From the NCBI GenBank assembly GCA_027068765.1, contig JAMOMC010000182.1, positions 2,955 to 66,954 on the forward strand: a stretch of 64,000 nucleotides of DNA, given 5' to 3'. Under the pieces are notes generated by a model, which ran no database searches, was not told the DNA's origin, and saw nothing but the letters and a program-made list of their open reading frames with translations. The position numbers and the translations under genes are program-made. This DNA is from Campylobacterales bacterium. Lineage in GTDB: Bacteria; Campylobacterota; Campylobacteria; Campylobacterales; QNZT01. This document shows, piece after piece, positions 32,689 to 50,255 of the stretch; position 1 is the first letter of the stretch, and every line of letters starts with the position of its first letter.

Positions 32689-34509
32689 ATGCATCTATTT
32701 TATAGTTTTTTAATTTTAATAGGATTAGTAATTTCAGGTTGTAATGGAGGAAGTAAAGAGCCTCAAAAAATCAAAGTTGAAGTTGATGGAGAAAATAAAC
32801 AAGAGGTTTCACAAGATATTAAAGAGGAAGTTAAAGAAGAAAAGTTTGAAGAGAGTTCTATAAAAATTCTTCCACATTTTCCACCAAGCTTAGAAAATAT
32901 TGCTTCAGATACTTTTGATTCATCTTTTGAGAGTGAGAGTAGAAACTACTCTTTAGTTGGTGGAGCATCTTTTGATATAGATGAGAGAAGAAGTGGAGAG
33001 AGATCTATAAAACTTCAAAATACTAATGATGCTATAAATATATACAATATCCCTGTAAAAGAAGGATCTTGGTATATGTTTTCAGGATATATGAAAGTTA
33101 AATCACTTCCTAGTGATGTAATTCGTTTTTATATAGGATATACAAATAATGGTGAGCATATTCACTCAGTTGCATTTCCGCTCATATCCACTGCAAAGAC
33201 TGGTGTTTGGGAAGAGTTCAATATGCCTCTTTATATTCAAAAAGGTAAAAATATTACAGATGTGAAGTTGATTATTCGAAATGTTGGTGAGCCTGATTTT
33301 AAAGCGGGGGTAATTTCTGATGTTTGGATAGATGATTTGAGTCTTCACAAAGTAAAAGATAGTGCACATCTTTTTGGATTTACAAAACCATCTATTAAAA
33401 AAAGTTTCAATGGCTCAAGAGTAAAGGTTGATAACTTAGGAAATTTTGAAGTAAAAACCGATCAAAAGTATGAATCATTTTTCCCTCTAATTGTCTATCC
33501 AGCAGGAGCATATGAGAGTTGGAAAAAATACAAACAAAAAGGTTTTAATGCCATAATGTGCCACAATCCAGTAGATGGAAAAGGTGCTGTAGATGCTGGG
33601 ATGTATTGGGTTTGGGATCTTTATAGTTATGGGGTAAATGATTTAAGTGGTGATGGGTTTGATCGTTTTGTTGCAGAGTATGATAAGTTAAAAAGAGAAA
33701 ATCCTGAAGTTTTAGATAAGTTACTCTACTTTTATTGGGACAATGAGGCATATTTTGTTTTTGATAGTTTTAAAATCTACTCAGATAAGATAAAAACTAT
33801 GGATGTAGATGTAAATGGAGATAGAAATAGACCTATTTTTATGCATCTTGATTTTACAGCTGGAAATAAAAACTATCACAATGATGTTTTTGAACTTATA
33901 GATATTCAAGGGACATATGCTAATCCTCTTTTATATCAAGAGAATGATAGGCTTAGTTATTCATACGATTTTAAAGGAAACTATAATGCTGAATTTGCAA
34001 ACTTTTCTATGTTTGAAAATATCTCAAATACAAAAATACCAAAAACTATTTTTGTCATAAATTCCCCTCAAGATGCAAATTTGGAAAATACTATTTTTGC
34101 TGCATTAGCTAGAGGAGGAAAAGGTTTTGCTTACTGGAAAGATAGTGGTTCACAACCTGCAATTGAAACAAGACCTTGGTGGAATGATTTTTCAAATATT
34201 AGTAGTAAAATAGAGAAGTTAAAACCTCTTTTAAGGTTAGCTCATTGGACTAATTGGGAGCTTTTGTATACTTTAAAAGATGATGAAGATGGTATAGTTG
34301 TTGGAAAGAGAGATTATGGCTCTAAAAGATGCATGATAGTTGCTAGCAGATCCAATAAGAGTGAAAGTGTAACATTTACAACCAAAGATAGAGAGATAAA
34401 AGAGGTGTATGATTTTTTTGATAATAAAGTTGCATCAACTGGAGTAGGGCATAGTTTTACTCTTTTATTTGCTCCCTTACAAAGTGGGGTTTACTGTTGG
34501 GATAAGTAG
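32689..34509 (+). CDS. Large lipoprotein, possible carbohydrate-binding beta-sandwich plus unknown C-terminal domain
   Basis: It has a lipobox (VISGC) and a Lys/Glu-rich linker. A region with the flavour of a CBM4_9/galactose-binding-like fold follows (GGASFDIDERRSGERSIKLQN...GSWYMFSGYMKV...VWIDDLSL). The function is not established. Confidence 0.6.
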   Translation: MHLFYSFLILIGLVISGCNGGSKEPQKIKVEVDGENKQEVSQDIKEEVKEEKFEESSIKILPHFPPSLENIASDTFDSSFESESRNYSLVGGASFDIDERRSGERSIKLQNTNDAINIYNIPVKEGSWYMFSGYMKVKSLPSDVIRFYIGYTNNGEHIHSVAFPLISTAKTGVWEEFNMPLYIQKGKNITDVKLIIRNVGEPDFKAGVISDVWIDDLSLHKVKDSAHLFGFTKPSIKKSFNGSRVKVDNLGNFEVKTDQKYESFFPLIVYPAGAYESWKKYKQKGFNAIMCHNPVDGKGAVDAGMYWVWDLYSYGVNDLSGDGFDRFVAEYDKLKRENPEVLDKLLYFYWDNEAYFVFDSFKIYSDKIKTMDVDVNGDRNRPIFMHLDFTAGNKNYHNDVFELIDIQGTYANPLLYQENDRLSYSYDFKGNYNAEFANFSMFENISNTKIPKTIFVINSPQDANLENTIFAALARGGKGFAYWKDSGSQPAIETRPWWNDFSNISSKIEKLKPLLRLAHWTNWELLYTLKDDEDGIVVGKRDYGSKRCMIVASRSNKSESVTFTTKDREIKEVYDFFDNKVASTGVGHSFTLLFAPLQSGVYCWDK

Positions 34510-35579
34510 CTTTTTGCTACTTCTACCGCTTTTTTAGCATCTATTTTACCGTATGCTCTATACTCATTAAAACCATTTGCATCATAGCTAACATCACCAA
34601 TTTTATCTGCTGTTTGGATTAAGATATCTCTTATCTCATCTGGAGTTAGATTTGGATTTACACTTATCATCAAAGCTACAACACCTGCTACTATAGGTGC
34701 TGCAAAACTTGTACCGTCAATAAAAGAGTAGTTATTGCTTAGACCTCTTTGTAATGTATTTCCAAATGAACCACTATCGTCAATTGCTAAAATACCAAGT
34801 ATATTAGTGTCTCCTCCAGGGGCCAATAAGTCTATATTTTTTCCATAGTTTGAGTAGAAAGCTATATCATTGTACTCATTACTAGCTCCTACACCTATAA
34901 CAGATGCAAGCTCTGATTCATCGTTAATTTGCTCTGCATCTAAACTATATCCACCAAGTGGGCTATTTCCACTAGCAAAGATGACTGTGATACCTCCATC
35001 TTTTAGTTCTTTAATTTTTTGTGCAACTATTTGAGATACATTTTCAGTTCCCCAACTACAGTTTATAACCTTTGCACCAGCATTTTTTGCATACTCAAAT
35101 GCTTTGATAATATGAGCATCATTATCTTGTAGCTGCTGTATTAAGATTAATTTTGCTTTTGGAGCTGCACCTACTAATCCTGTTGCATTTATAGGAGATG
35201 CTATAAAACCAGCAACACTCAAGCCATGAGATGCATCATCTGTTCTGTTTGGGATATATCCACTTGGATTATCTATACTATAAAAATCTATGATATTCTC
35301 TTTTAAGTCTTGATGGCTTATCTCAAAATAGTTATCAATGACAGCAACCTTAACTCCCTCTCCTTTTGTAATTTTCCAGGCACTTTCTATATTTATGTGA
35401 GATTTTGGAGAGATATTAAAATTTTCTACTAAAGTATCACTTTGTTTAAAATGCCAAGCATATTTATAGTAAGGCTCATTTTCTATAGTTAGTTCATTAC
35501 TATCTATCGGCTTTTTATCACATGCTAAAAATTGCAATAGAGTTGTTATGAAGATAACTTTTAAAGAAAATTTTATCAT
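34491..35579 (-). CDS. Subtilisin-like serine protease (peptidase S8) lipoprotein, lacking a cis prodomain
   Basis: The lipobox is LQFLAC. Catalytic boxes are VKVAVIDN (Asp), ASHGLSVAG (His), FASGNS (Asn) and DGTSFAAPIVAGVVAL (Ser). Confidence 0.9.
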   Translation of the reverse strand: MIKFSLKVIFITTLLQFLACDKKPIDSNELTIENEPYYKYAWHFKQSDTLVENFNISPKSHINIESAWKITKGEGVKVAVIDNYFEISHQDLKENIIDFYSIDNPSGYIPNRTDDASHGLSVAGFIASPINATGLVGAAPKAKLILIQQLQDNDAHIIKAFEYAKNAGAKVINCSWGTENVSQIVAQKIKELKDGGITVIFASGNSPLGGYSLDAEQINDESELASVIGVGASNEYNDIAFYSNYGKNIDLLAPGGDTNILGILAIDDSGSFGNTLQRGLSNNYSFIDGTSFAAPIVAGVVALMISVNPNLTPDEIRDILIQTADKIGDVSYDANGFNEYRAYGKIDAKKAVEVAKSYLSQQ

Positions 35580-38649: not shown

Positions 38650-39678
38650 GTGAAAGTTTTTCATCTCTCACATATTGATTTAGATGGGTATAGTTGTCAA
38701 CTTATAACAAAAAGGTGTTTTGAGGATATAAGTTATTATAACTCAAACTATGGAAAAGAGATAGACCAGAGAATTGAACAGATGCTTTTGGATATTGAAA
38801 AAGTTGGAAGTGAAAAAAATCTTATTTTGATTACTGATTTAAATCTCACCCTAAAACAAGCAAAAACATTGACTTCATTAGTAGATGCATCTCATAAAGA
38901 TATAGAGATACTTTTATTAGATCATCATAAAACTGGTCAAGATTGTGCAAGTTTGTATGATTGGTATCATCTTGATGTAAAGCGATGTGCTACAAAGATA
39001 ACATATGATTATTTTTTAGAAAAAGGCTACGATATAGCTGATATGGGAAAATATGTAGATGTTGTAAATGCTGTTGATATTTGGCTTAGTGATAGTGAGT
39101 ATTTTGAGCTTGGTAAGGTGTTTATGCGGATAGTCTCAGGAGCAAGAGAGGTAAATAGAATGCTTTTTTGTGAAAAAAACAGTGAGTATATCTTCTCTTT
39201 GTTGGAGGGTGCTTTTTTATATCTTGACAAAGAAGATGCAAATATAGCTCTTGATAACAATCTTCACTCTCTTAAAAAGAGTTATTTTAGAAAAGATAGA
39301 GATGATACTTTGGAAAATCTAATCTCACACTTTGTAGTCTCCATGCTTAGTGAGAAAAAAGAGCATCTTAGTGTTACTTATGGTAAGTATCGAGGAGTTT
39401 TAACTTATTCTATTGGGAATACTTCGATTATTGGAAATGAGTTTTTAGTTACAAATCCTGATTTTGACTTTTTTATGGATATAAATGGACGAAAAAATGT
39501 AAGTATGAGGGCTAATAATAAAGCTGATGTAAGTGCAATTTGTAAAAAACTTTTTAATGGCGGAGGTCATGCAAATGCCAGTGGTGGCAGGTTTGATGAT
39601 TTTAAAGACTCATTTATATATGAAGATATTAAAGAGCAGGTACAAGATATTATGATAATAGGAGAAAATAGTGAATAA
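38650..39678 (+). CDS. DHH-family phosphoesterase
   Basis: It has a GTG start. Motifs are HIDLDGYSC, LLLDHHKTG (DHH) and GGGHANASGG (DHHA1). Confidence 0.7.
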   Translation: MKVFHLSHIDLDGYSCQLITKRCFEDISYYNSNYGKEIDQRIEQMLLDIEKVGSEKNLILITDLNLTLKQAKTLTSLVDASHKDIEILLLDHHKTGQDCASLYDWYHLDVKRCATKITYDYFLEKGYDIADMGKYVDVVNAVDIWLSDSEYFELGKVFMRIVSGAREVNRMLFCEKNSEYIFSLLEGAFLYLDKEDANIALDNNLHSLKKSYFRKDRDDTLENLISHFVVSMLSEKKEHLSVTYGKYRGVLTYSIGNTSIIGNEFLVTNPDFDFFMDINGRKNVSMRANNKADVSAICKKLFNGGGHANASGGRFDDFKDSFIYEDIKEQVQDIMIIGENSE

Positions 39679-39910
39679 GATAAAAGATTTAGAAGAAGAA
39701 GTGCAGGATTTGACAATTCATTTAGCTGATATGTTGGAAGCAGTTTTATACTTTGGGGGTGTGAAAGAAGGAAAGATTGAAGAGGCTGTAAAAGCATATA
39801 TAGATGCTCTTGATGAAGTGTTTGAAGATGACGATGGTGAGATGGGATATAAAGAGGTTGTTGTGGTGGTTGAACATTTAAAAAGAGCTAAATCAGAGCT
39901 TTTTTCTTAA
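39671..39910 (+). CDS. Hypothetical small acidic protein (79 aa)
   Basis: The GTG start overlaps the DHH gene by 8 nt. It is a helical, acidic sequence with no recognised motif. Confidence 0.4.
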   Translation: MNKIKDLEEEVQDLTIHLADMLEAVLYFGGVKEGKIEEAVKAYIDALDEVFEDDDGEMGYKEVVVVVEHLKRAKSELFS

Positions 39911-40213
39911 AAAATATAGTCCAAGTTTTTATGTAAAAATGCATAAAAACTATATAAGTAAAGAGTGATTTTTATAAAATCTTCTTAAGAATACTTCTAG
40001 ATATAAGGGAAAGGTATTTTTTTAAGAATAATGACTTATATCATCTTAAAGACTAACCCAATAGAGTTTTAGAATTTAATGTATTTAATATCTATGATAA
40101 GAGAATTTTAAAGTTTCTTAAATTAAATTATATTTTTTTTATAAATTTCTTAAAAATAGAGAAAATTAGGGGTATGAAGAGTTTAAAAAGCTTAATTAAT
40201 AAACAAAAATAGA

Positions 40214-40254
40214 AAGATATTTTTAATAAGAGTCTTTTATATTAAAAATATCTT
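40214..40254. promoter_or_regulatory. 15-bp perfect inverted repeat (candidate operator or hairpin) upstream of the distal cytochrome promoter
   Basis: AAGATATTTTTAATA (40214-40228) and TATTAAAAATATCTT (40240-40254) are exact reverse complements separated by 11 nt. Confidence 0.35.
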
Positions 40255-40299
40255 AAAATAATAAATAAGTATTGTTATTCAGGTATTTAATTATTATTT

Positions 40300-40356
40300 A
40301 ATCTTATATTTTAATTTTTAATTTTTAGTAATTTGTCATGACTATCCTATTATAAT
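40300..40356 (+). promoter_or_regulatory. Paralogue-type promoter P1: AATCTTATAT box plus TATAAT, 51-nt offset
   Basis: AATCTTATAT is at 40300 and TATAAT at 40351-40356. The same box, -10 element and 51-nt offset occur upstream of the other two cytochrome genes. Here it lies about 460 nt upstream of the ATG. Confidence 0.45.
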
Positions 40357-40690
40357 TACATCAGAATTCTGTTTTAACGGGTTCTGGTTTAATTCAGTTT
40401 ATTAGACAGAGAGTAGTTTTATTTTATTTAATCTTAAATAGAAGATTTCGCAAGATTTAATGTTTTAAAATGTGAGCTTTAAAGGCATTAAATTTATCGA
40501 AAGTAAGTATTGTAGGTTGTTTGCACAAAGATATAGCTATAAAAATAGCAGAGTTTTGTTTGTGGTTTTCATAAAATAATTAAAATAATTTAATAATTTC
40601 TTTAATTAATAAAACTATTTAATATTTTAAATATAAGTATTGCTAATATTTGTTTGATAAAACATGGATTAAAAAAGGTAAAACAGCGCA

Positions 40691-40719
40691 TTGACTATTT
40701 ATTTATAGATGGATATAGA
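40691..40719 (+). promoter_or_regulatory. Possible proximal sigma70-like promoter for cytochrome 1
   Basis: TTGACT (40691-40696), a 17-nt spacer, then TATAGA (40714-40719). Two 7-bp hairpins follow in the leader: 40740-46 with 40754-60, and 40767-73 with 40779-85. Confidence 0.3.
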
Positions 40720-40814
40720 TGGTTGTTAGTAGATAGGTTAGCTAATCTTTAAAATTAGCTTAAACACAAGTACGTTTTGTACTTGAATTCATATAATATA
40801 AGGAGCGATATATT

Positions 40815-42902
40815 ATGAAAAAAAATAAGAGATCGTTTGTACAATCTTTTGGTTTAGCACTATTTTTTTTAATGGCTAGTGTTACTTTTAGTTCGGCAAA
40901 TGTACCAGCACCTCCGGTGAATCAAACAATAGGTATTCCAGATACTACTTTTGCAAACTTAAGTAAGTTGAATTGTGCTTATTGTCATGCACCTGAAAAA
41001 TTAACAGCAGCGGAAATAGCTGAAATGGGTTGGACTTTTGATAGACCAACAATGAAGCCTGGTATCATAGCAGATCGTCATCATGCTAGAGTTATAAACG
41101 AGATGATTATGGGTGAAAAAACACAAGCACCATTTGGTACACCAGGTGATCCTTATGTATGTTTATCTTGTCATAAGATTGAATGGAACGAAGCGACTAT
41201 GACTAATGAGTTGATTCCTAATTTCAAAGATTGCCAAAATTGTCACTTTCAAGTGGATGGTGCTACGGTTCATCATTTAACAGAGATGGCACAAGCGTTA
41301 AACTGTAAACATTGTCATGGTGCTAGAATAAATAATCCAAATGAAGGACATTTTGTTCCACTTGGTAGAACACCGACTCTTTTTACTCCAAGAACTAGTA
41401 AAGGAGAAGGACCAGGTGGTCAAGGTGCTTGTACATACTGTCATAATTCAGGAGTGGATACGGCATCTGGTATCGCTGTAAACGAAAATTCTGTAAATCA
41501 CCATAATACTGGTATAGGTCAACCAGGAATTTCAGATATAAGTTGTGATCTTTGTCATGATAGAGCTGGTACTGAGTGGGCAATTCGTCGTTGTGAAAGT
41601 TGTCATGGTATAAGCTCAATTCACAATATCCAAGCTGATTCTAATGGAGATGGACAGATAATAGTAGGACAAGAGTTAAGATACTTTGGTCATATTGGTA
41701 ATGATCCAAATGATTGTAAAGGTTGTCACAACAATTTAGAAGTTGGACAAAATGGTTTAGGTGCTCCTGAGTCTGGTCCAGTTATTCCTCAAATCTCAGA
41801 TATGAGTGAATTTAAAATAGTTGCTGGTGTTGCTACTTCTATCACAGTTACTGGGTTAGCCTTTACAAATCAAATAAGTGGTAGAGTTTTACAATCTACT
41901 ATTACAGTTACTAATTTGGATAATATTGTTGTAGCAGAGTTAACACCTAGTTCTATCTCTGAATCTACTATGATAGTAACTATTCCAAGTAGTTTAGAAG
42001 CTGGAAGTTACTATATTCGTGCAAAAAAAGGACCAAAAGATAGTAATCCTATGAATTTGGTAATTGTGCCTAAAGTAGTTATTAGTGATGTAAGTACAAA
42101 TAATAGTGTATTTACTATTGCAGGTAGCGGTTTTGGTAAATATTTAAATGCTGCGGAAGCAAATACACATGTTACTATAGCTGGAACTAAGTGTAGTATC
42201 GATTCTTGGACTAGTAGTCAAATTGTTACACAATGTTCATCAAGATGTGGCTCTTTAGTAGTTAATAGTATTTTTGGAAGTGCTACTTACACAATTGATT
42301 GTGAAGGTGGTGGAGACAATAACAATGATTATCAAAGAGGGTATGATGCAGCTCAAGATGCGGCATTTGCAGAAGGAAATGGCGATAAGTGTAGCGGTAA
42401 AGCTTGGAATATAGATGCTAGCTTAAACTATGACACAAGATATAATCAAGGTTATACAGATGGTTATGTAGTTGCTTATGATACAGGCTGGGAAAGTAGT
42501 TGTGGAAATGGCGGGAACGATGGTTCAAGTTATGAAGATGGTTACGAAGCAGCTTATGATGCGGCATTTGCAGAAGGAAATGGCGATAAGTGTAGCGGTA
42601 AAGCTTGGAATATAGATGCTAACTTAAACTATGACACAAGATATAATCAAGGTTATACAGATGGTTATGTAGTTGCCTATGATACAGGCTGGGAGAGTAG
42701 CTGTGGTGACAACAATAACGGAAGTTATGAAGATGGTGTCACAGCAGCTTATGATGCTGGTTATGCTGAGGGTAAAAGTGACTCTTGTGGAGGCAAAACT
42801 TGGAGTATAGGAATTGAACTTGCTTATGATACTCCATATAACGACGGTTATGCATTTGGCTATGTAAAAGCCTATGATGAAGGCTGGGAAAGTTGTAGAT
42901 AG
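40815..42902 (+). CDS. Secreted octahaem c-type cytochrome, paralogue 1 (8 CxxCH + 2 Ig/IPT-like domains + 3 C-terminal YDW repeats)
   Basis: AGGAG sits 9 nt upstream of the ATG, and there is a signal peptide (...VTFSSA/NVPAPP). CxxCH motifs start at C54, C116, C140, C164, C206, C244, C260 and C301. Conserved extra His occur in DRHH, VHH, EGH, NHH, SIH and FGH. IPT/TIG-like segments span roughly aa 325-418 and 419-496. Three ~58-aa repeats span aa 506-563, 573-630 and 637-694. Confidence 0.9.
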   Translation: MKKNKRSFVQSFGLALFFLMASVTFSSANVPAPPVNQTIGIPDTTFANLSKLNCAYCHAPEKLTAAEIAEMGWTFDRPTMKPGIIADRHHARVINEMIMGEKTQAPFGTPGDPYVCLSCHKIEWNEATMTNELIPNFKDCQNCHFQVDGATVHHLTEMAQALNCKHCHGARINNPNEGHFVPLGRTPTLFTPRTSKGEGPGGQGACTYCHNSGVDTASGIAVNENSVNHHNTGIGQPGISDISCDLCHDRAGTEWAIRRCESCHGISSIHNIQADSNGDGQIIVGQELRYFGHIGNDPNDCKGCHNNLEVGQNGLGAPESGPVIPQISDMSEFKIVAGVATSITVTGLAFTNQISGRVLQSTITVTNLDNIVVAELTPSSISESTMIVTIPSSLEAGSYYIRAKKGPKDSNPMNLVIVPKVVISDVSTNNSVFTIAGSGFGKYLNAAEANTHVTIAGTKCSIDSWTSSQIVTQCSSRCGSLVVNSIFGSATYTIDCEGGGDNNNDYQRGYDAAQDAAFAEGNGDKCSGKAWNIDASLNYDTRYNQGYTDGYVVAYDTGWESSCGNGGNDGSSYEDGYEAAYDAAFAEGNGDKCSGKAWNIDANLNYDTRYNQGYTDGYVVAYDTGWESSCGDNNNGSYEDGVTAAYDAGYAEGKSDSCGGKTWSIGIELAYDTPYNDGYAFGYVKAYDEGWESCR
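42330..42896 (+). repeat. Three copies of the ~58-aa C-terminal YDW/two-Cys repeat (paralogue 1)
   Basis: Consensus: YxxGYxAAxDAAFAEGNGDKCSGKAWNIDAxLNYDTRYNQGYTDGYVVAYDTGWESSC. Copies 1 and 2 have a 201-nt period. Confidence 0.85.
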
Positions 42903-42907
42903 CGGTT

Positions 42908-42937
42908 GGGGTAGATTTATTTACCCCTATTTTTTTA
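42908..42937 (+). terminator. Rho-independent terminator after cytochrome 1
   Basis: GGGGTA (42908-13) pairs with TACCCC (42922-27), followed by a T-run (42930-37). Confidence 0.65.
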
Positions 42938-43058
42938 CTTATATTGGGAGTGCTAAATGCACTCTCATTACTTAAACTTCAAAAATTAAATACTTTCATA
43001 TAAATGACTATAATTTAACTATAGTTAATAGACTAAATAGAGCTTTCAATTATAAATT

Positions 43059-43115
43059 AATCTTATATATTAGTTGATAAATTTTACTAAAATATCATCA
43101 ATTTATTATTATAAT
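43059..43115 (+). promoter_or_regulatory. Paralogue-type promoter P2
   Basis: AATCTTATAT is at 43059 and TATAAT at 43110-43115 (51-nt offset). Between box and -10, 30 of 41 positions match P3. A 14-bp palindrome, TTAACTATAGTTAA, lies just upstream at 43015-43028. Confidence 0.5.
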
Positions 43116-43164
43116 TATCTTGGATAATCTTTGGTTTTAATAAATTTATATGAGGAAATACAAT

Positions 43165-45249
43165 ATGAGAAAAAACGGCATAAAAATATTTAGAGTTAAA
43201 GCAATTCTATTTTTATTAATAATTAGTTTTACTTTTAGTTTTGCTAGAGTACCGCCACCACCTCCTGCAACAGTAAATCAAAATATAGGTATTCCCGATA
43301 CAACTTTTAAAAACTTAACTAAATTAAATTGTGCATATTGTCATGCACCAGAGAAATTGACACAACAGCAGAGAAATGAGATGGGTTGGACTTTTGATAA
43401 ACCAGAGACTAAACCTGGTGTTTTGGCAGATCGACACCACAATAAAGTAATAAAAGGTGTAATTATACCAAAAGGAACACAAGCACCTTTTGGAACAATT
43501 GGTGAGCCTTATGTATGTCTCTCTTGTCATAAAAGTGAATGGAATGAAGCTAATATGCGTTATGAATTGTCTAATAATTTTAAAGATTGCCAAAATTGTC
43601 ATATACACAATGAAAATGTTACAGTTCACCATTTAACTGCAAAAGCTCAGGCTCTTGATTGTAAACACTGTCACGGTGCTAGAGTTGATAATCCAAATGA
43701 TGGACATATTATTCGAACTTCTAGAAGAGGAAGTTTATCTATTCCTCGTCCCAAGAATGGAACAGGACCAAATGGCGAGGGGGCTTGTACATTTTGTCAT
43801 AAAGCAGGAGTTGATAGTGCATCTGGTATCTCAATAAATACAAATGCTATAAATCACCATAGTACAGGTATAGGTCAAGATGGAATTTCAGATCTCTCTT
43901 GCAATCTTTGTCATGATGATCAAGAAGAGGATGAGATGTGGAAATTTAAAAGATGTCAAAATTGTCATGGTATGAAATCACTTCATAGTATTCAATTTGA
44001 TTCTAATGGAGATGGACAGATAATAGTAGGACAAGAGTTAAAATACTTTGGTCATGTTGGTAATGATCCTATAGATTGTCAAGGTTGTCATGGTGGATAT
44101 TTAGCACTATTAAATCAAAATGCACTTGGAATGATGTTTCCTAATGTTGTTGCTCCAGAGATTTTAAATTTGAGTACATTTAAAATAATTGCAGGTGAAG
44201 AGGCTACTATCAGCATAAGTGGTCGAGGATTTACAAATGTTACCTATAATATAACAATGAAATCTTTTATCACTATAACTGGTAAAGACGACAAAGAGAT
44301 AAAGTTAACACCTATCTCTATCACTGAATCTTCAATTGTAGTAAAAACTCCAACTAATATAGCCCCAGGAAACTACTATCTGCATGCAAAAAAAGGTACT
44401 TATGAGAGTAATCCTATGAGTATTGTGGTTATTCCCAAAGTGTTTATTAGTGAAGTTAGTGAAAATAATAGTATATTAACTATTCAAGGTCAAGGATTTG
44501 GAAAGTATCTTGATAGCATTGGTACAAATACTAAAATATCACTAGAGAACTCAAAGTGTAGTGTTGAGTCTTGGAGTGATACCCAAATTGTTGCAAAATG
44601 CTCTACTAAATGTGGTTCATTAGTAGTTGATAGTGTTTTTGGAAGTGATACTTATATAGTTGATTGTAATGTTGGCATAGGAGATTATGAGAGAGGTTAT
44701 CAAGCAGCAGGAGATGTGGCATTTGCAGAGGGAAATGGTGATAAATGTAGCGGTAAAGTTTGGAATTTAGATGCTGATTTAAATTATGATACAAAATATA
44801 ATCAAGGCTATACGGATGGATATGTAGTTGCTTATGATGTAGGCTGGGAGAGTAGTTGTGGAGATGATAATTCAAGTTATGGAGATGGTTATAAAGCATC
44901 TTATGATATAGCATTTGCAGAAGGAAATGGAGATAAGTGTAGTGCTAAAGTTTGGAATATAGATGCTAATTTAAATTATGATACAAAATATAATCAAGGC
45001 TATACAGATGGATATGTAGTTGCTTATGATGTGGGCTGGGAGAGTAGCTGCCAAGGAGACAATAACGGAAGTTATGAAGATGGTGTTAAAGCAGCTTATG
45101 ATGCTGGTTATACTGAGGGTAAAAGTGACTCTTGTGGGGGCAAAATTTGGAATATAGAAGCCAGGCTTACTTACGATACACTATACAACGATGGTTATGC
45201 ATTTGGCTATGTAAAAGCTTATGATGAAGGTTGGGAGAGTTGTAGATAG
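43165..45249 (+). CDS. Secreted octahaem c-type cytochrome, paralogue 2 (alternative start 43150)
   Basis: The ATG at 43165 has AGGA 8 nt upstream, while the ATG at 43150 aligns with the start of paralogue 3. There are eight CxxCH motifs (CAYCH, CLSCH, CQNCH, CKHCH, CTFCH, CNLCH, CQNCH, CQGCH), two IPT-like domains and three C-terminal repeats. Confidence 0.9.
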   Translation: MRKNGIKIFRVKAILFLLIISFTFSFARVPPPPPATVNQNIGIPDTTFKNLTKLNCAYCHAPEKLTQQQRNEMGWTFDKPETKPGVLADRHHNKVIKGVIIPKGTQAPFGTIGEPYVCLSCHKSEWNEANMRYELSNNFKDCQNCHIHNENVTVHHLTAKAQALDCKHCHGARVDNPNDGHIIRTSRRGSLSIPRPKNGTGPNGEGACTFCHKAGVDSASGISINTNAINHHSTGIGQDGISDLSCNLCHDDQEEDEMWKFKRCQNCHGMKSLHSIQFDSNGDGQIIVGQELKYFGHVGNDPIDCQGCHGGYLALLNQNALGMMFPNVVAPEILNLSTFKIIAGEEATISISGRGFTNVTYNITMKSFITITGKDDKEIKLTPISITESSIVVKTPTNIAPGNYYLHAKKGTYESNPMSIVVIPKVFISEVSENNSILTIQGQGFGKYLDSIGTNTKISLENSKCSVESWSDTQIVAKCSTKCGSLVVDSVFGSDTYIVDCNVGIGDYERGYQAAGDVAFAEGNGDKCSGKVWNLDADLNYDTKYNQGYTDGYVVAYDVGWESSCGDDNSSYGDGYKASYDIAFAEGNGDKCSAKVWNIDANLNYDTKYNQGYTDGYVVAYDVGWESSCQGDNNGSYEDGVKAAYDAGYTEGKSDSCGGKIWNIEARLTYDTLYNDGYAFGYVKAYDEGWESCR
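44686..45246 (+). repeat. Three copies of the C-terminal YDW/two-Cys repeat (paralogue 2)
   Basis: The three copies begin YERGYQAAGDVAFAEGNGDKCSGKVWNLDADLNYDTKYNQGYTDGYVVAYDVGWESSC, YGDGYKASYDIAFAEGNGDKCSAKVWNIDAN... and YEDGVKAAYDAGYTEGKSDSCGGKIWNIEARLTYDTLYNDGYAFGYVKAYDEGWESC. Confidence 0.85.
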
Positions 45250-45261
45250 TGCTTGAGAGGG

Positions 45262-45284
45262 GGGGAGGTTTTATAGCTCTCCCC
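45262..45284 (+). terminator. Putative terminator hairpin after cytochrome 2
   Basis: GGGGAG (45262-67) pairs with CTCCCC (45279-84) inside a G7 run, with an 11-nt loop. The downstream T-tract is weak. Confidence 0.45.
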
Positions 45285-45371
45285 TTAATCTTTAAAATAA
45301 AATATATTTTATATAAATAGTTATAAAATAAACATAAACAATAAAACAGAAAAAGTTTTCACTTATAAATT

Positions 45372-45428
45372 AATCTTATATATTAATTTTTGAATTTTAC
45401 AAGAGTATCATCTGTTTCTTATTATAAT
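45372..45428 (+). promoter_or_regulatory. Paralogue-type promoter P3
   Basis: AATCTTATAT is at 45372 and TATAAT at 45423-45428 (51-nt offset). The ATG is 34 nt downstream of the -10 element. Confidence 0.5.
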
Positions 45429-45461
45429 ATGTTATAACTATAGCATAAGGAAAAATCTATT

Positions 45462-47330
45462 ATGACAAAAGATTATAAAACTCTTGTACCATCTTTTGTT
45501 ATATGGTTTTTTTTAGCTATTTCTACAGTTAGTTTTGCTGCTCCTCCTCCAACAGTAAAACAAAATATCGGTATTGCTGATACAACATTTGAAAATTTAA
45601 CTAAACTAAATTGTGCATATTGCCATGCACCTGAAAAGTTAACAATTAAACAGAGAGAAGAAATGGGTTGGACTTTTGATATTCCAGAGTTAAAACCAGG
45701 TATTTTAGCAGATCGTCACCATGCAAAACTAAGAGATGGTGTGATTATGGATGAAAATACTCAGGCACCTTTTGGAACTGCTGGAGAGGTTTATACCTGT
45801 TTCTCTTGTCATAAAGTTGAGTGGAGTGATCTTAGTTTAAGATATGAGTTATCTGATAATTTTAAAGATTGTCACAATTGTCATAAAGAGCAAAATGGTG
45901 CTACTGTTCACCACTTAACACCACAAGCACAAACCCTTAATTGTAAACATTGTCACGGAGATAGGATTGATAACCCAAACAGTGGACACTATATTCCATA
46001 TGATAAAACCCCAACTAATTTTACCCCTAGAACTAGCAGAGGAAAAGGACCAAATGGTGAGGGTGCTTGTACTTTTTGTCATAAAGCAGGGGTAGATAAT
46101 GCATCTGGAGTTGTTGTAAATTCTAATGCTATAAATCACCATAGTACAGGTATTGGTCAAGGAGGAGTTTCTAAGCTTCACTGTACTTTATGTCACGATA
46201 GTAGTGCAGGTACTGATTGGGCTATTCGTAAATGTCAAAATTGTCATAGTATAGATTCTCTTCATAGTATTCAAGCTGATTCCAATGGAGATGGTGTTAT
46301 AAAAATAGGAGAAGAGTTGCCATATTTTGGTCATATTGGCAATGAACAGGCAGATTGTAAAGGGTGTCATACTGGATATTTTGAGATGGAAAATGCTTTA
46401 GATATGATTACAAAAGCTTCTATAACTCCAGAAATCTTAAATTTAAGTACATTTAAAATTGTTTTGGGAGTTGATACTGCTGTAAGAGTTAATGGATCGG
46501 CATTAACTGATGTATTATCCAATAAGAGAGTTAAATCTGTTGTAACTATGGCGGATAAAGATGGTAAAGAGATTGAGCTAACACCTGATTTTGCTTCTGA
46601 ATCTTCACTTACTATTACAGTTCCAAATACTCTGAGTCTTGGAAATTACTATCTTCGTGTAAAAAAAGGTTTTAAAAGTAGTAATCCTATAAATGTAGTT
46701 GTTATACCTAGTGTGAGTATTGATAAGGTAGATGTCTCAAATGAGCTATTAGTTGTTCAAGGTCAAGGTTTTGGTAAACATATGTATGGATTAGATTCAA
46801 AGACTAAAATATCATTAGATGAGTCGATATGTAGTGTTGACTCTTGGAGTGACAATAAAATTGTAGCCGAATGTAGCTTGGAATGTGGAGCATTGGTTAT
46901 AGATAGTGTTTTTGGAAAAAGCACCTATATGGTTGATTGTATTGATAGTAGTGATAACTATCAAAAAGGGTATGACTCATCTTATAAATTAGCATTTAAC
47001 CAAGGAAATAGTGATAGATGTGAAGGCAGAACTTGGAGTATAGATGCTAACTTAAAATATGATACAAGATTTAACCAAGGTTATGCGGATGGATATGTAT
47101 ATGCATATGATGAAGGTTGGGAGAGTGATTGTTCAGGGATTGATAATGGTGATTTTGAAGTAGGATATGAAGCGGCACAAGATGCAGGATTTACTAAAGG
47201 TAGTTATGATAAATGTAGTGGTAAAAATTGGAATATAGAAGTTTTGTTGAGATATGATACTAAATATGAACAAGGATATAGTGAAGGATATATAGAGGCT
47301 TATGATGAAGGTTGGGAGAGCTGTAATTAG
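45462..47330 (+). CDS. Secreted octahaem c-type cytochrome, paralogue 3 (2 C-terminal repeats)
   Basis: It has an AAGGA RBS and a signal peptide (...STVSFA/APPP). There are eight CxxCH motifs (CAYCH, CFSCH, CHNCH, CKHCH, CTFCH, CTLCH, CQNCH, CKGCH), two IPT-like domains and two repeats. No terminator precedes the next gene. Confidence 0.9.
   Translation: MTKDYKTLVPSFVIWFFLAISTVSFAAPPPTVKQNIGIADTTFENLTKLNCAYCHAPEKLTIKQREEMGWTFDIPELKPGILADRHHAKLRDGVIMDENTQAPFGTAGEVYTCFSCHKVEWSDLSLRYELSDNFKDCHNCHKEQNGATVHHLTPQAQTLNCKHCHGDRIDNPNSGHYIPYDKTPTNFTPRTSRGKGPNGEGACTFCHKAGVDNASGVVVNSNAINHHSTGIGQGGVSKLHCTLCHDSSAGTDWAIRKCQNCHSIDSLHSIQADSNGDGVIKIGEELPYFGHIGNEQADCKGCHTGYFEMENALDMITKASITPEILNLSTFKIVLGVDTAVRVNGSALTDVLSNKRVKSVVTMADKDGKEIELTPDFASESSLTITVPNTLSLGNYYLRVKKGFKSSNPINVVVIPSVSIDKVDVSNELLVVQGQGFGKHMYGLDSKTKISLDESICSVDSWSDNKIVAECSLECGALVIDSVFGKSTYMVDCIDSSDNYQKGYDSSYKLAFNQGNSDRCEGRTWSIDANLKYDTRFNQGYADGYVYAYDEGWESDCSGIDNGDFEVGYEAAQDAGFTKGSYDKCSGKNWNIEVLLRYDTKYEQGYSEGYIEAYDEGWESCN
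46959..47327 (+). repeat. Two copies of the C-terminal YDW/two-Cys repeat (paralogue 3)
   Basis: The two copies are YQKGYDSSYKLAFNQGNSDRCEGRTWSIDANLKYDTRFNQGYADGYVYAYDEGWESDC and FEVGYEAAQDAGFTKGSYDKCSGKNWNIEVLLRYDTKYEQGYSEGYIEAYDEGWESC. Confidence 0.85.
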
Positions 47331-47357
47331 CAGTTTTAAAAAATTTAGGAGAATATT

Positions 47358-49199
47358 GTGTTAAAAAATATATGTAAAATGGCTTTTGCTATTTTGATGA
47401 TAGTATCTTTTTCTCATACAGCTCTTTTAGCTAAAGAGTCTATAATAGTTGGGTTTTATAAGGATTTGAGTAGTAGTGAAAGGGTATTGATTGAAAATAG
47501 TGGAGGAGTGATTAAACATACTTATAAGTTGATTCCAGCTATCTCTATGGAGATAGCAAAGGAGCGTATTGAAAAATTAAAAGGCTACTCTTTTGTAAAA
47601 TATATAGAAGAAGATAAAAGTGTTGTCTCAATAAAAAAGTTATCTAAAAAATCTCAAAGAGCTTATCAAAACTCTTTTTTTCAAAATGATATTTCAGGTG
47701 ATGAGTATCAAAATAGCTTGGGAGTTTCCAAGATAAATAGTAAAGTAGCTCATGATAAAAATATCACAGGTAAAGGTGTAAAAATTGCTATTTTGGACTC
47801 TGGAATAAACTACAATCATCAAGATTTAAAAGATAACTATAGTGGTGGACATAATTTTATAATGGATGCAAACTCTTCTGACCCATATGATGATGGTTGG
47901 AATACTCACGGAACTCATATGGCAGGAATAATTGCTGCAAAAAATAATGGAGTAGGTGTAGTTGGTGTTGCACCTTCAGCCTCTATATATGCTGTAAAAG
48001 TGTTAGATTATAATGGTTTTGGAATGGTTAGTGATGTAATTGCTGGTATTGAGTGGGCTGTGTCTAACGATATGGATATAGCAAATATTAGCATTTCAGG
48101 TATTGATTCAGATGTGTTAGAGGCTACTTGTGATGCGGCACAAGATGAGGGATTATTGATAATTGCATCTGCTGGAAACAGTTATGGTGAAAGTGCCTTG
48201 TTTCCAGCATCTTATGACTCAGTTGTTGCTGTTGGTAGTGTTGATGCTGAAAATAAATTAGGTTTTTTCTCACCTATCGATACAGCAGTAGAGATAGTTG
48301 CTCCTGGTTTAGATATTTTGTCAACTTCAAAAGATAATGGATACGATATTATGAGTGGCACTTCTCAATCAACTGCTTTTGTTAGTGGTGTGGCTGCTTT
48401 GATAATTTCATCTGGTGTGCGTGATATTAACGAAGATGGTGAGATAAATAACTTGGATGTAAGAGAAAAACTACAAATCTCTGCATTAGATTTGGGTGAG
48501 ATTGGTCGTGATGATAAATTTGGATATGGATTGGTAGATGCAAATAGTTCACTTTTTGTCTCTTCTTTACCTATACTTACTGAGGATACATACGAGCAAG
48601 GTTATAAAGATGCACAAGATGCAGGTTTTGCAGAAGGCAGAGATGACTCATGCGGATATAAGATATGGAATATAGATGCAAATTTAACATATGATACTAA
48701 ATATAATGATGGTTATGCAGTTGGTTACATAGAAGCCTATGATAAAGGCTGGGAGAGTTGTAAAAATGTAGATAACAACTCTAGTGACAACAATAATTCT
48801 AGTTATGATGATGGCTTTAAATCTGCTCAAGATGCGGGTTTTACAGATGGTAAAAATGATTCTTGTGGCAATGATGTCTGGAGTATAGGAGTTTTTCTAA
48901 GTTTTGATACAGACTATGATATAGGTTATGCAGATGGATATATAAAAGCTTATGATGATGGCTGGGAGAGTTGTAGAAGTGACGAGGATAAACTTAGTTA
49001 TGATGAGGGTTTTAAAGCTTCCATAGAGATAGGGGCTAAAAAAGGAAAAAGTGACTCTTGTGCCAATAGGGCTTGGAGCATTGATGTGGAGCTAGATTAT
49101 AACACTAGATATAACGAAGGTTATGCAGATGGTTATATAAAATCTTATGATGAAGCTTGGGAGAGTGATAAGAGTGATTGTTCTGAACAATCGGAATAA
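47358..49199 (+). CDS. Subtilisin-like serine protease (S8) with I9-like propeptide and three C-terminal YDW/two-Cys repeats
   Basis: The GTG start lies 6 nt after AGGAG and 28 nt after the cytochrome 3 stop. It has a signal peptide and a propeptide-like segment (IIVGFYKD...YSFVKYIEEDKSV). Catalytic boxes are VKIAILDSG (D147), HGTHMAG (H184), SAGNS (N274) and SGTSQSTAFVSG (S336). Repeats span aa 412-468, 483-539 and 548-608. Confidence 0.9.
   Translation: MLKNICKMAFAILMIVSFSHTALLAKESIIVGFYKDLSSSERVLIENSGGVIKHTYKLIPAISMEIAKERIEKLKGYSFVKYIEEDKSVVSIKKLSKKSQRAYQNSFFQNDISGDEYQNSLGVSKINSKVAHDKNITGKGVKIAILDSGINYNHQDLKDNYSGGHNFIMDANSSDPYDDGWNTHGTHMAGIIAAKNNGVGVVGVAPSASIYAVKVLDYNGFGMVSDVIAGIEWAVSNDMDIANISISGIDSDVLEATCDAAQDEGLLIIASAGNSYGESALFPASYDSVVAVGSVDAENKLGFFSPIDTAVEIVAPGLDILSTSKDNGYDIMSGTSQSTAFVSGVAALIISSGVRDINEDGEINNLDVREKLQISALDLGEIGRDDKFGYGLVDANSSLFVSSLPILTEDTYEQGYKDAQDAGFAEGRDDSCGYKIWNIDANLTYDTKYNDGYAVGYIEAYDKGWESCKNVDNNSSDNNNSSYDDGFKSAQDAGFTDGKNDSCGNDVWSIGVFLSFDTDYDIGYADGYIKAYDDGWESCRSDEDKLSYDEGFKASIEIGAKKGKSDSCANRAWSIDVELDYNTRYNEGYADGYIKSYDEAWESDKSDCSEQSE
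48591..49181 (+). repeat. Three copies of the YDW/two-Cys repeat on the protease
   Basis: The three copies begin YEQGYKDAQDAGFAEGRDDSCGYKIWNIDANLTYDTKYNDGYAVGYIEAYDKGWESC, YDDGFKSAQDAGFTDGKNDSCGNDVWSIGVFLSFDTDYDIGYADGYIKAYDDGWESC and YDEGFKASIEIGAKKGKSDSCANRAWSIDVELDYNTRYNEGYADGYIKSYDEAWESDKSDC. Confidence 0.85.
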
Positions 49200-49229
49200 T
49201 ATTTTATTAAAATTAGGAGATAAAAATAT

Positions 49230-50255
49230 ATGAGTATAATTAAAAATAAGAGTAATGGTTTGTTGATTTTGGGTTTTAGTGTTTTAATTTCAGGTGTTTT
49301 AAATGCATCTGTCAAAGTAGACAACAATACAACAGTTACAGAGCAAAAAACTGTTTTTACAGAAATTGTAGCTACCGTTAATGGAGAAAATATTTATAAA
49401 AGCCAATTAGATAAATTGATAAAAAAAGAGTTAAGAAACGATAGTATATTAAAATCTTCAGGTACAAATAGTGCTCAAGAGAGTGTATTAAGACATACAA
49501 TTCTCAATAAGTTAATTGAAAAAGAGATTTTAAAACAAGCTAGCTTAAAAGAGCCTATTTTAGATATTGATAAGAAGATAAAAGAGGATATTGCTACAAT
49601 CAAAGAGAAATATGGAAGTATTGAAAAATATAAATCTTATCTGCAAGATATGTCAGATGAAGAGTTTAACACTCTTTTGAAAAATAAAGTACAAATGAAA
49701 GAGTATCTTAAAAAACAAGGAGTTGTTAATCCAGATATTCCAGAAGAAGAGATAAAAAAGTTTTATGGTGATGGAACAGGAAGTTTTAAAGTAGAAGAGC
49801 TTATAAAGGCTAAACAGATTTTACTTCTTTTTAAAGCAGATATAAATGAAGATGAAAAAAATAAGATTAAAGAGAAAGCAGAAAAGTTAAGAGAGCAAAT
49901 TGCAAATGGAGCAGATTTTTCAAAATTAGCAAAAGAGCATTCACAAAGTGGAGAAGCTAATGCAACTGTAGCAGGAGATCTAGGAATTGTTAAAAAAGGT
50001 TATATGCCAAAAGAGTTTGATGAAGTTGCATTTGCTATGAAAAAAGGAGAGTTAAGTAAAGTTTTTGCTTCTAAATTTGGATATCATATCGTCAAAGTTA
50101 CTGATAGGCGAGAGGCTGGAGTTACTCCTTATGAAGATGTAAAAGATTTTATTCGTAAATTTTTACAAGAGAAAGAGACAGTAAAGATGTTAGATGCTCT
50201 TAAAAAGAGACTTAAGTCTGAAGCAAAAGTTGAAATAATGTTAGATAAAAAGTAG
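49230..50255 (+). CDS. Periplasmic SurA/PpiC-type (parvulin) peptidyl-prolyl isomerase
   Basis: AGGAG sits 10 nt upstream of the ATG, and there is a signal peptide. A SurA_N-like helical N-terminal part is followed by the parvulin domain: KAKQILL...FSKLAKEHSQ...GDLGIVKKGYMPKEFDEVAF...GELSKVFASKFGYHIVKV. Confidence 0.85.
   Translation: MSIIKNKSNGLLILGFSVLISGVLNASVKVDNNTTVTEQKTVFTEIVATVNGENIYKSQLDKLIKKELRNDSILKSSGTNSAQESVLRHTILNKLIEKEILKQASLKEPILDIDKKIKEDIATIKEKYGSIEKYKSYLQDMSDEEFNTLLKNKVQMKEYLKKQGVVNPDIPEEEIKKFYGDGTGSFKVEELIKAKQILLLFKADINEDEKNKIKEKAEKLREQIANGADFSKLAKEHSQSGEANATVAGDLGIVKKGYMPKEFDEVAFAMKKGELSKVFASKFGYHIVKVTDRREAGVTPYEDVKDFIRKFLQEKETVKMLDALKKRLKSEAKVEIMLDKK

Follow-up and report, generated by a model that had tools for sequence, protein, structure and literature searches.

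Among the routes by which microbes may move electrons over micrometres, cytochrome nanowires have the best support. A three-gene "nanowire assembly" operon, consisting of omcZ, ozpA and a prolyl isomerase gene, has been published and was reported to be sufficient for the production of wires in heterologous hosts (10.1101/2023.08.01.549754; 10.64898/2026.07.18.739370). In Geobacter, the protease was reported to be required for OmcZ wire formation (PMC9473688; 10.64898/2026.07.18.739370), OmcZ being cleaved after FGNSS284 (PMC9473688), and the counterpart of the isomerase was reported to be needed for OmcZ expression (10.64898/2026.07.18.739370). OmcZ-type operons are reported to be spread widely through Bacteria and Archaea (PMC9473688), the published cluster comprising diverse Bacteria, ANME, Methanoperedens archaea and Borgs. 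In the literature searched, we found neither a report of OmcZ in Campylobacterota nor an explanation of how OzpA is targeted to pro-OmcZ.

Here, we analysed a window of 64,000 nt, by which we mean the whole stretch of DNA under study. Its ClpB matched Campylobacterales MAGs at 84-86%, supporting the Campylobacterota host claimed in an earlier reading made from the letters alone (the sequence-only reading). The genome is that of an uncultured vent-type Campylobacterota, a less expected carrier of an OmcZ set; vent-type Campylobacterota are known for sulfur and hydrogen chemolithoautotrophy, not for metal respiration. With a probability of about 75%, we consider the locus described below, with its three omcZ paralogues, to belong to the published OmcZ nanowire assembly cluster and its cytochromes to mature by the mechanism that we propose. 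With all genes of the OmcZ assembly set present in vent-type Campylobacterota, the cytochrome nanowire route would extend to that group, and the electroactivity of these bacteria becomes directly testable.

Gene order of the locus and its relatives

The locus comprises five genes, all on the + strand. Three encode pre-pro-OmcZ paralogues, noted as tandem octahaem cytochromes in the sequence-only reading: cyt1 (40815..42902, 695 aa), called as an open reading frame and characterized by its eight CxxCH motifs, PDB matches and AF2/Foldseek analysis; cyt2 (43150..45249), which has 699 aa when read from the first ATG and 694 aa when read from the ATG at 43165, the latter being the version in the public collection; and cyt3 (45462..47330, 622 aa), with eight haem motifs and two Ig domains. 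They are followed by the gene of an OzpA-like S8 subtilase (47358..49199, 613 aa, GTG start) and by that of a SurA/PpiC-type peptidyl-prolyl isomerase (PPIase; 49230..50255, 341 aa), the third operon gene. The intergenic gaps are, in order, 247, 212, 27 and 30 nt; the 30 nt between subtilase and PPIase agree with the earlier count, while the 28 nt given between cyt3 and the subtilase should read 27. By this short distance, cyt3 occupies the ancestral operon position.

Upstream of cyt1 lies an AT-rich non-coding stretch of ~900 bp (39912..40814), recognized by inspection of the sequence, which contains no ORF of at least 80 aa, returned zero matches in an Rfam search and holds only weak sigma-70-like matches; it is presumably the promoter/regulatory region of cyt1. 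Just 3′ of cyt1, a terminator-like hairpin with a T-run was noted on the + strand (42908..42927, GGGGTAGATTTATTTACCCC then TATTTTTTTA), by consensus match only. No outer-membrane conduit or secretion genes were found within the 64,000-nt window, a point against the nanowire assembly reading.

A survey of neighbourhood conservation, which the sequence-only reading had proposed, recovered the order cytochrome-S8-PPIase in 44 of 70 related loci, distributed among Geobacteraceae, Gammaproteobacteria, Nitrospirota and Campylobacterales, with Geobacter and Geomobilimonas among them; the close relatives L075 and L076 also have it, and two to three omcZ-like gene copies occur among close relatives. 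The locus shares its three gene types, in identical order, with the published cluster, from which it differs by its Campylobacterota host, by the duplication or triplication of the cytochrome gene and by a tail module common to substrate and protease. As to the earlier description of the locus as lying outside Geobacter, the occurrence is confirmed but not its newness, the wide spread of such operons having been published (PMC9473688). The kind of locus is thus already known; the tail common to protease and cytochromes is undescribed.

The octahaem cytochromes

Each cytochrome contains exactly eight CxxCH motifs, and CxxCK or CxnCH variants occur in none of the three. In cyt1 the motifs lie at C54, C116, C140, C164, C206, C244, C260 and C301, identical to the positions given by the sequence-only reading, and the sites align among the paralogues. 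In an alignment of 22 sequences including G. sulfurreducens OmcZ, the eight haem sites were invariant together with the nine extra histidines previously pointed out (H89, H90, H153, H154, H179, H229, H230, H270 and H293, cyt1 numbering), and the mature N-terminal motif VPxPPVNQxxGIxDT was conserved. Judging from the alignment, the nine histidines would be enough to give each of the eight haems a bis-His ligation.

The domain organization of cyt1 consists of a signal peptide (aa 1-28), an octahaem core (aa 29-~317), two IPT/Ig domains (aa ~318-504) and a tail (aa 505-695). When cyt1 was compared with all PDB entries by phmmer, the sole matches at E values up to 10 were two OmcZ entries, 8d9m_A (E=2.4e-47, aa 86-474) and 7lq5_A (E=5.4e-27), the match spanning the haem core plus both Ig/IPT domains. 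The comparison with the OmcZ filament subunit suggested earlier was carried out with the AF2 model of cyt1, for which the OmcZ nanowire 8d9m was the top PDB match in Foldseek (E=7.4e-10, target-normalised TM 0.54, rmsd 7.6 Å), the remaining matches being IPT/Ig tandems; the pLDDT in the haem core was moderate, 60-75. The OmcZ-like reading is thus upheld both by sequence, with PDB matches limited to OmcZ, and by the best fold match. The two Ig/IPT-like segments, also noticed before, are backed by Pfam TIG matches, by an AF2 pLDDT >90 and by Foldseek matches to IPT domains.

With OmcZ (GSU2076; 7LQ5, 8D9M) the window cytochromes share the signal peptide, the Pro-rich N-terminus VPxPPVNQ, the order of the eight haem sites, the nine extra histidines, the linker after haem 8 and the two C-terminal IPT/Ig domains. 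They differ from it in having an identity of ~33%, by an insertion of ~22 aa after haem 1, by four extra Cys in the second Ig domain, by the addition of a 124-191 aa repeat tail absent from OmcZ and by the presence of three tandem paralogues instead of one. The haem 2 motif is also different, being CX14CH in OmcZ and CLSCH or CFSCH in the window cytochromes, as in most homologues. Since OmcZ reportedly goes on making wires when haem 2 is given a canonical CxxCH (10.64898/2026.07.18.739370), the missing CX14CH does not disqualify the window proteins from the OmcZ family. CX14CH at haem 2 is a trait of G. sulfurreducens rather than of the whole family, and natural paralogue sets with the canonical motif are variants at hand for nanowire expression on the Shewanella-based platform.

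Protease, isomerase and predicted maturation

The catalytic residues D147, H184, N274 and S336, which the sequence-only reading had assigned, were located in the motifs ILDSG, HGTH, AGN and GTS. The subtilase is composed of a signal peptide, an I9-like propeptide, a catalytic domain and three tail repeats; it matched Pfam Peptidase_S8 (E=1e-54), with weak matches to the I9 and Tk-SP propeptides, and its best PDB match was pro-subtilisin E 3whi (E=1e-56, alignment beginning at aa 28), also reported as the match of a Borg serine protease (10.1101/2023.08.01.549754). As in OzpA (GSU2075) and the other syntenic S8s of omcZ clusters, secretion, a propeptide and the D/H/S triad are combined with a position directly downstream of omcZ. 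The pro and catalytic regions were 40-46% identical over ~390 aa (256-305 bits) to syntenic S8s of Geobacteraceae (L052, L054, L057, L058, L064 and L069), versus 42% identity and 175 bits to mature subtilisin BPN′, and the catalytic domain alone was 45-51% identical to the Geobacteraceae proteins. The catalytic domain thus appears only modestly nearer to the syntenic S8s of Geobacteraceae than it is to subtilisin BPN′, and the assignment as OzpA rests mainly on synteny.

The PPIase is a secreted parvulin of the PpiC type, located directly after the subtilase, a position conserved in most related loci, and it combines Rotamase/Rotamase_3 (about 1e-23) with SurA_N_3 (6e-10) in Pfam, in line with the SurA/PpiC assignment made before. 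The PpiC-type PPIase gene that the sequence-only reading placed beside ozpA is indeed part of the published operon (10.1101/2023.08.01.549754; 10.64898/2026.07.18.739370).

By alignment, the OmcZ cleavage site corresponds to cyt1 N313-A317, with the equivalent position at ~A317/P318, where we infer that cyt1 is cut. It falls in a linker of cyt1 that is predicted to be protease-sensitive (aa 306-322, NNLEVGQNGLGAPESGP; 41730..41780, + strand). The AF2 pLDDT was <50 for aa 285-318, suggesting that the linker after haem 8 is probably flexible, in agreement with the earlier claim. In the mechanism that we propose, each cytochrome would be exported by Sec and its eight bis-His c-type haems attached in the periplasm, and the SurA/PpiC-type isomerase may aid the folding of a protein with a Pro-rich mature N-terminus. 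The cytochrome would exit the cell as a pro-protein of ~72-78 kDa, and the adjacent secreted subtilase would cut the flexible linker a few residues past haem 8, thereby removing both IPT/Ig domains together with the repeat tail. The freed core, of ~31 kDa as apoprotein or ~36 kDa with haems, could then form a conductive filament by polymerisation and so serve extracellular electron transfer.

Tail repeats shared by cytochromes and protease

The C-terminal repeats announced for the cytochromes are real: three copies of 58-67 aa in cyt1 (42327..42899), every copy containing two ([YFW]xx[GA])x4 segments as well as two Cys, and, by repeat analysis, three in cyt2 (44683-45246) and two in cyt3 (46956-47327), all on the + strand. 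The C-terminus of the subtilase (aa 408-613; 48579-49196, + strand) is built of three repeats of the same module, a point absent from the sequence-only reading. The repeats, of 46-67 aa, are acidic, Tyr/Gly-rich and Cys-bearing; the cyt1 tail has a pI of 4.05. Between cyt1 and cyt2 the tails were 82% identical and the cores 58%. The subtilase tail was 49-53% identical to the cytochrome tails of the window and, within a genome, 49-65% identical to its cognate cytochrome tail. Three tail subtypes were distinguished, 26-43% identical to each other, in a comparison where the cytochrome cores were 52-64% and the S8 cores 57-67% identical; in all three the pairing between cytochrome and S8 is kept, the tails always matching within a genome. 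A search of 1.84 billion representative proteins with the tail gave nine matches, only to OmcZ-like cytochromes and their S8, and no Pfam or NCBIfam family is assigned to the repeat.

Most OzpA-like proteases elsewhere carry instead a different tail of ~105 aa, without BLAST similarity to their own cytochrome and without a family match. In three loci outside Campylobacterales (L024, L041 and L053), the S8 tail consists instead of the Ig domain(s) of the cognate cytochrome, copied at 62-77% identity. Matched repeat tails and Ig-copy tails together suggest tail-matching between protease and substrate. We propose that the shared repeat tail may bring the protease and the pro-cytochromes together, either by tail-tail binding or through one shared surface partner. 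The pLDDT of the tail was 30, leaving no usable predicted structure, so that tail-tail docking is conjecture. More generally, OmcZ-maturing proteases might find their substrates via matched tails, be they repeats or Ig copies, with homotypic docking or co-anchoring setting the place and time of wire release, and the system might also give vent Campylobacterota long-range extracellular electron transfer; we put this forward tentatively and consider it less likely than not. Matched tails provide a concrete hypothesis for OzpA targeting that can be tested by deletion.

The shared tails could also be a neutral by-product of recombination between adjacent genes, by 3′-end duplication or gene conversion, with no role in docking. 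This we regard as a serious possibility, at somewhat less than even odds, considering that the genes are adjacent, that repeats are recombination-prone, that the cytochrome copy number varies between relatives and that the matching tail is missing from most OzpA-like proteases. The match is, however, old and maintained: the S8 and cytochrome repeats are only 66-73% identical in DNA, orthologous tails of L003 and L004 are 83-86% identical, compared with 58-68% to the paralogous tail, the pairing holds throughout the three repeat subtypes, and domains of two unrelated types, repeats and Ig, have come to be shared.

The tails also bear on whether wires are made at all. At 14-23 kDa with a pI of about 4, they resemble an attachment or binding module more than a disposable pro-piece, and the proteins, although true OmcZ homologues, could act at full length as secreted or surface-attached octahaem cytochromes in which the Ig domains and tail form a spacer and anchor, next to a subtilase that only self-matures or has another role. 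The direction of electron flow, which we infer, could in that case run inward, the electrons coming from minerals or from conductive vent chimneys. At the predicted cleavage site the residues are indeed not conserved (NGLGA/P in cyt1 versus FGNSS/P in OmcZ), and many hosts of the family bear the names Sedimenticola, Candidatus Thiodiazotropha, Thiohalomonadaceae or Campylobacterales, organisms that oxidise sulfur instead of reducing metals; loci with the first three names carry the assembly set as well. Set against this are the tight linkage that protease and isomerase show with the cytochrome across nearly all lineages, the presence of a linker predicted to be flexible and the reported requirement of OzpA for Geobacter wires mentioned above, which make uncut cytochromes unlikely. 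A far more remote alternative, in which the haem domain would be that of an octahaem enzyme located in the periplasm (nitrite, tetrathionate or hydroxylamine type) and would hold a catalytic penta-coordinate haem, has nothing but the haem count of eight in its favour and is effectively refuted: PDB sequence matches to such enzymes were zero at E up to 10, such folds were absent from the Foldseek matches, and CxxCK or a Cys/Lys/Tyr-ligand signature is lacking, nine invariant histidines being enough for bis-His ligation.

Whatever their function, the tails show a marginal, motif-level likeness to other repeats. Their runs of [YFW]xx[GA] place a small residue at every fourth position, as do the deca-GX3 of Yae1/Lto1 and the glycine repeats of FliH, and the S8 tail weakly matched Pfam Yae1_N (29.2 bits versus a cutoff of 27.5) and FliH. 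Deca-GX3 and FliH glycine repeats are helix-helix association motifs mediating dimerisation, and we take this likeness as a lead. The repeat module itself appears to be private to this Campylobacterales clade and fast-evolving.

The cytochrome-protease-foldase cluster and its homology to OmcZ

ORF calling placed five genes on the + strand in the region where a reading of the sequence alone had proposed a cytochrome maturation locus: the cytochrome genes cyt1 (40815-42902, 695 aa), cyt2 (43150-45249, 699 aa, with a 694-aa form in the public collection that starts at ATG 43165) and cyt3 (45462-47330, 622 aa), followed by a gene for an S8 subtilase (47358-49199, 613 aa, GTG start) and one for a SurA/PpiC isomerase, or PPIase (49230-50255, 341 aa). 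The intergenic gaps measure, in that order, 247, 212, 27 and 30 nt, and a terminator-like hairpin lies directly 3′ of cyt1. The close spacing of cyt3, S8 and PPIase points to cyt3 as the gene in the ancestral operon position, with cyt1 and cyt2 as additional copies. As had been read, each cytochrome carries exactly eight CxxCH motifs, placed where the sequence-only reading had put them; a motif scan of the three proteins gave no variant haem motifs, and they are the only multihaem ORFs within the window. Pfam assigned Cytochrome_C7 and TIG domains to the cytochromes, Peptidase_S8 (E=1e-54) to the subtilase and Rotamase and SurA_N to the isomerase; the catalytic triad and oxyanion residues of the protease (D147, H184, N274, S336) are found in canonical motifs.

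When cyt1 was searched with phmmer against all PDB sequences (E allowed up to 10), only two entries matched, both of them OmcZ, the octahaem nanowire cytochrome of Geobacter sulfurreducens. The 473-aa precursor (8d9m_A) matched with E=2.4e-47 over cyt1 aa 86-474, so that homology spans the haem region and the Ig-like domains, and the 258-aa mature form (7lq5_A) with E=5.4e-27. We aligned OmcZ residues 14-442 with cyt1, cyt2, cyt3 and 18 diverse homologues, OmcZ being rebuilt from the PDB alignment since G. sulfurreducens was not among the genome-scan returns. In this alignment all eight haem sites correspond, OmcZ included, the mature N-terminus VPxPPVNQxxGIxDT is conserved, and the nine extra histidines noticed earlier as candidate haem ligands (H89, H90, H153, H154, H179, H229, H230, H270 and H293 in cyt1 numbering) are invariant. 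The odd one out at haem 2 is OmcZ itself, with CX14CH, whereas the window proteins and most homologues have the canonical CxSCH; OmcZ engineered to canonical CXXCH at this haem is reported still to form wires (preprint, 10.64898/2026.07.18.739370). An insertion of ~22 aa after haem 1 is present in the Campylobacterales proteins and in some from Gammaproteobacteria; the clade-specific insertion of cyt1 lies at aa 59-84 (nt 40989-41066) and reads PEKLTxxxxxEMGWTFDxPxxKPG. Four extra cysteines in the second Ig domain (cyt1 aa 458-496) are likewise clade-specific.

An AF2 model of cyt1 aa 29-505, built from 44 sequences, had a mean pLDDT of 71.7, with about 60-75 in the haem part and more than 90 in the two beta-sandwich domains. 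Its top PDB match in a fold search was the OmcZ nanowire 8d9m (E=7.4e-10, TM 0.54 normalised by target), and the other strong matches were all tandem IPT/Ig structures. An octahaem enzyme of the nitrite, tetrathionate or hydroxylamine type, the identity that would have spoken against an OmcZ-like protein, was rejected, as none appeared among the PDB sequence matches (E up to 10) or the fold matches. OzpA, the protease that matures OmcZ, cuts it after FGNSS284 (PMC9473688), and the residues of cyt1 that align with this stretch, N313-A317, belong to the linker after haem 8 to which the sequence-only reading had pointed as a likely cleavage region. In the model, haem 8 and the linker (aa 285-318) have pLDDT below 50, so that a low-confidence segment falls at the position of the known OmcZ cleavage. 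If cut at the equivalent position, the predicted haem core would be a 31-32 kDa apoprotein, or 36-37 kDa with eight haems, leaving an Ig pair of about 19.5 kDa and a repeat tail of 14-21 kDa.

Gene order across genomes and proposed function

A genome scan with the cytochrome alignment, covering one genome per GTDB species, returned 70 loci, and tblastn recovered cytochrome, S8 and PPIase in that order in 44 of them, ranging from Campylobacterales to Geobacteraceae, Nitrospirota and Gammaproteobacteria. The other loci are truncated by a contig end, have S8 and PPIase arranged differently, or show just one or neither of the two genes. The full order occurs in Geobacteraceae (Geomobilimonas luticola, L064, and the Geobacter MAGs L052, L057, L058 and L069), in Desulfobulbia and other Thermodesulfobacteriota, in Nitrospirota, in the gammaproteobacterial Sedimenticola and Thiohalomonadaceae, and in Campylobacterales (MAGs L004, L005, L012 and L038, and also L001); in the Campylobacterales locus L003 the contig end falls within S8. 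Candidatus Thiodiazotropha has four loci, with the full order only in L033; in L045 the S8 is present and the PPIase was not detectable by tblastn. Two close relatives keep the cluster with varying copy number: L075 (GCA_054028235.1; 10001-17173) combines two cytochromes with S8, PPIase and ClpB and has the upstream genes of the window, and L076 (GCA_006243085.1; 2894-12324) has three cytochromes, S8 and PPIase with, unlike the window, CheB/CheR upstream. Three tandem cytochrome copies also adjoin S8 and PPIase in L032 (Nitrospirota) and L035 (an unclassified MAG), and a second Nitrospirota locus (L039) has four copies, S8 and PPIase not being detected in the stretch fetched.

Many gammaproteobacterial and some Campylobacterales loci contain in addition a small cytochrome (160-200 aa) resembling part of the OmcZ haem domain, located between omcZ and S8 or divergently upstream beside a response regulator (L007 9852-10127; L001 8137-8418; L005 3286-3567); it is absent from the window. 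In the Campylobacterales MAG L019, an internally duplicated multihaem ORF of 296 aa (6944-7834) lies directly upstream of the OmcZ-like gene, its DRHH-like and CxxCH motifs recalling the N-terminal half of OmcZ.

The protease was compared through its aa 1-407, with OzpA (GSU2075) represented by syntenic S8s of other Geobacteraceae. Identity was 54-62% (413-473 bits) to the syntenic S8s of Campylobacterales, 40-46% (256-305 bits) to those of Geobacteraceae and 42% over 275 aa (175 bits) to mature subtilisin BPN′, whose score agrees with the 187 bits given by phmmer for 1s01. Sequence alone thus sets the OzpA-like group only modestly apart from true subtilisins; the assignment of the window S8 to OzpA is carried by synteny.

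Homology, domains and gene order thus uphold the proposed OmcZ/OzpA-like system, but its kind is not new, because the three-gene omcZ operon is already described: an OmcZ nanowire assembly cluster has been reported in Methanoperedens and Borgs (10.1101/2023.08.01.549754), and a wide distribution of omcZ-ozpA operons in Bacteria and Archaea has been noted (PMC9473688). Rebuilding the cluster reportedly suffices for wires in a heterologous host (10.1101/2023.08.01.549754; 10.64898/2026.07.18.739370), and good OmcZ expression is reported to need the isomerase (10.64898/2026.07.18.739370). By analogy with Geobacter, the pro-cytochromes would be exported by Sec and loaded with haem, folded with the aid of the isomerase and secreted; S8 would cut after haem 8, and the freed core would polymerise into a conductive filament. 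We put at 0.75 the probability that the cluster functions as an OmcZ-type set of pro-cytochromes, protease and foldase in the manner of the Geobacter one. Within the literature searched, no report of an OmcZ homologue in Campylobacterota was found, although the homologue survey of Gu et al. 2023 may list some; among papers naming both, those examined dealt with OmcE (in Campylobacterota) and with omcZ (in Desulfobacterota). What marks this cluster as a variant is the paralogue set and a subtype-matched tail common to protease and cytochromes.

Matched tails of protease and cytochromes

The C-terminus of S8 (aa 408-613), which had escaped the sequence-only reading, consists of three copies of the repeat that forms the cytochrome tails. 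Each unit comprises two stretches of [YFW]xx[GA] turns, the first with four turns and the second ending in GWES, with a one-Cys loop between them and another Cys after the second; Tyr and Gly abound in the tails, which are acidic, with a pI of about 4.05. Pfam and NCBIfam gave no family for them, only marginal matches to Yae1_N, FliH (glycine-repeat type), MciZ and Alvin_2107, and AF2 prediction from seven sequences (pLDDT 30) gave no assignable fold. Against 1.84 billion representative proteins, phmmer returned nine matches, of which two were true, an OmcZ-like cytochrome (P0144) and an S8 (P0145), so that the module seems confined to this system. The other matches were low-complexity GYxxGY or other unrelated repeat proteins.

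Three tail subtypes were distinguished: A in the window (58-67 aa per unit), B, Cys-poor, in L003 and L004, and C in L038 and L019 (about 46 aa per unit). The protease has the subtype of its cytochromes in every genome with both genes readable; in L019 S8 was not found in the stretch fetched. Within a genome, the S8 tail is 49-65% identical to the cognate cytochrome tail, against 26-43% across subtypes, while across genomes cytochrome cores share 52-64% and S8 cores 57-67%. The S8 and cytochrome repeats are 66-73% identical in DNA, and identity between the orthologous tails of L003 and L004 is 83-86%, but 58-68% in the paralogous pair; judging by these values, the pairing is old and not a fresh duplication.

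OzpA-like proteases of other lineages usually end in a tail about 105 aa long that shows no similarity to their cytochrome, and a Pfam search with this tail gave nothing. Three loci outside Campylobacterales parallel the common tail of the window, their S8 (L024 9932-11446; L041 9642-11132; L053 2571-4310) ending in a copy, 62-77% identical, of the cognate cytochrome's last Ig domain(s). With the Campylobacterales repeats and these Ig copies, the sharing of a C-terminal module by protease and substrate has thus arisen with two unrelated domain types. The matched tails hint that protease and substrate may co-localise, through homotypic docking or one shared anchor, an idea that we hold as tentative and rather doubtful. 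The rival explanation is neutral recombination between adjacent genes, which would match the tails of neighbours with no role in docking.

Host and surroundings of the cluster

The ClpB of the window is 84-86% identical to proteins named as from Epsilonproteobacteria or Campylobacterales MAGs and shares 73-76% identity with its counterparts in Nitrosophilus, Nitratiruptor and Hydrogenimonas. The flanking genes are housekeeping genes (Rrf2, FlhA and a DHH protein upstream; ClpB, heptosyltransferases and an ABC exporter downstream), and no Rfam matches were obtained within the window. Upstream of cyt1 lies a very AT-rich non-coding stretch of about 900 bp (39912-40814), with no Rfam match and no clear promoter, preceded by a 79-aa ORF (39671-39911) that was called in L075 too. 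A second S8 subtilase (34491-35579, − strand, 362 aa), at the same place in L075, is unrelated, being 26% identical to that of the cluster, and a small 111-aa ORF (27873-28208, + strand) has one CxxCH motif and no Pfam match. Over 1-12000 the GC skew is unusually strong (+0.40 to +0.54). A giant ORF (403-22602, + strand), at least 7399 aa long, is full of RTX calcium-binding nonapeptide repeats over its first roughly 3000 or more residues, which Pfam matched to HemolysinCabind (E=4e-199).
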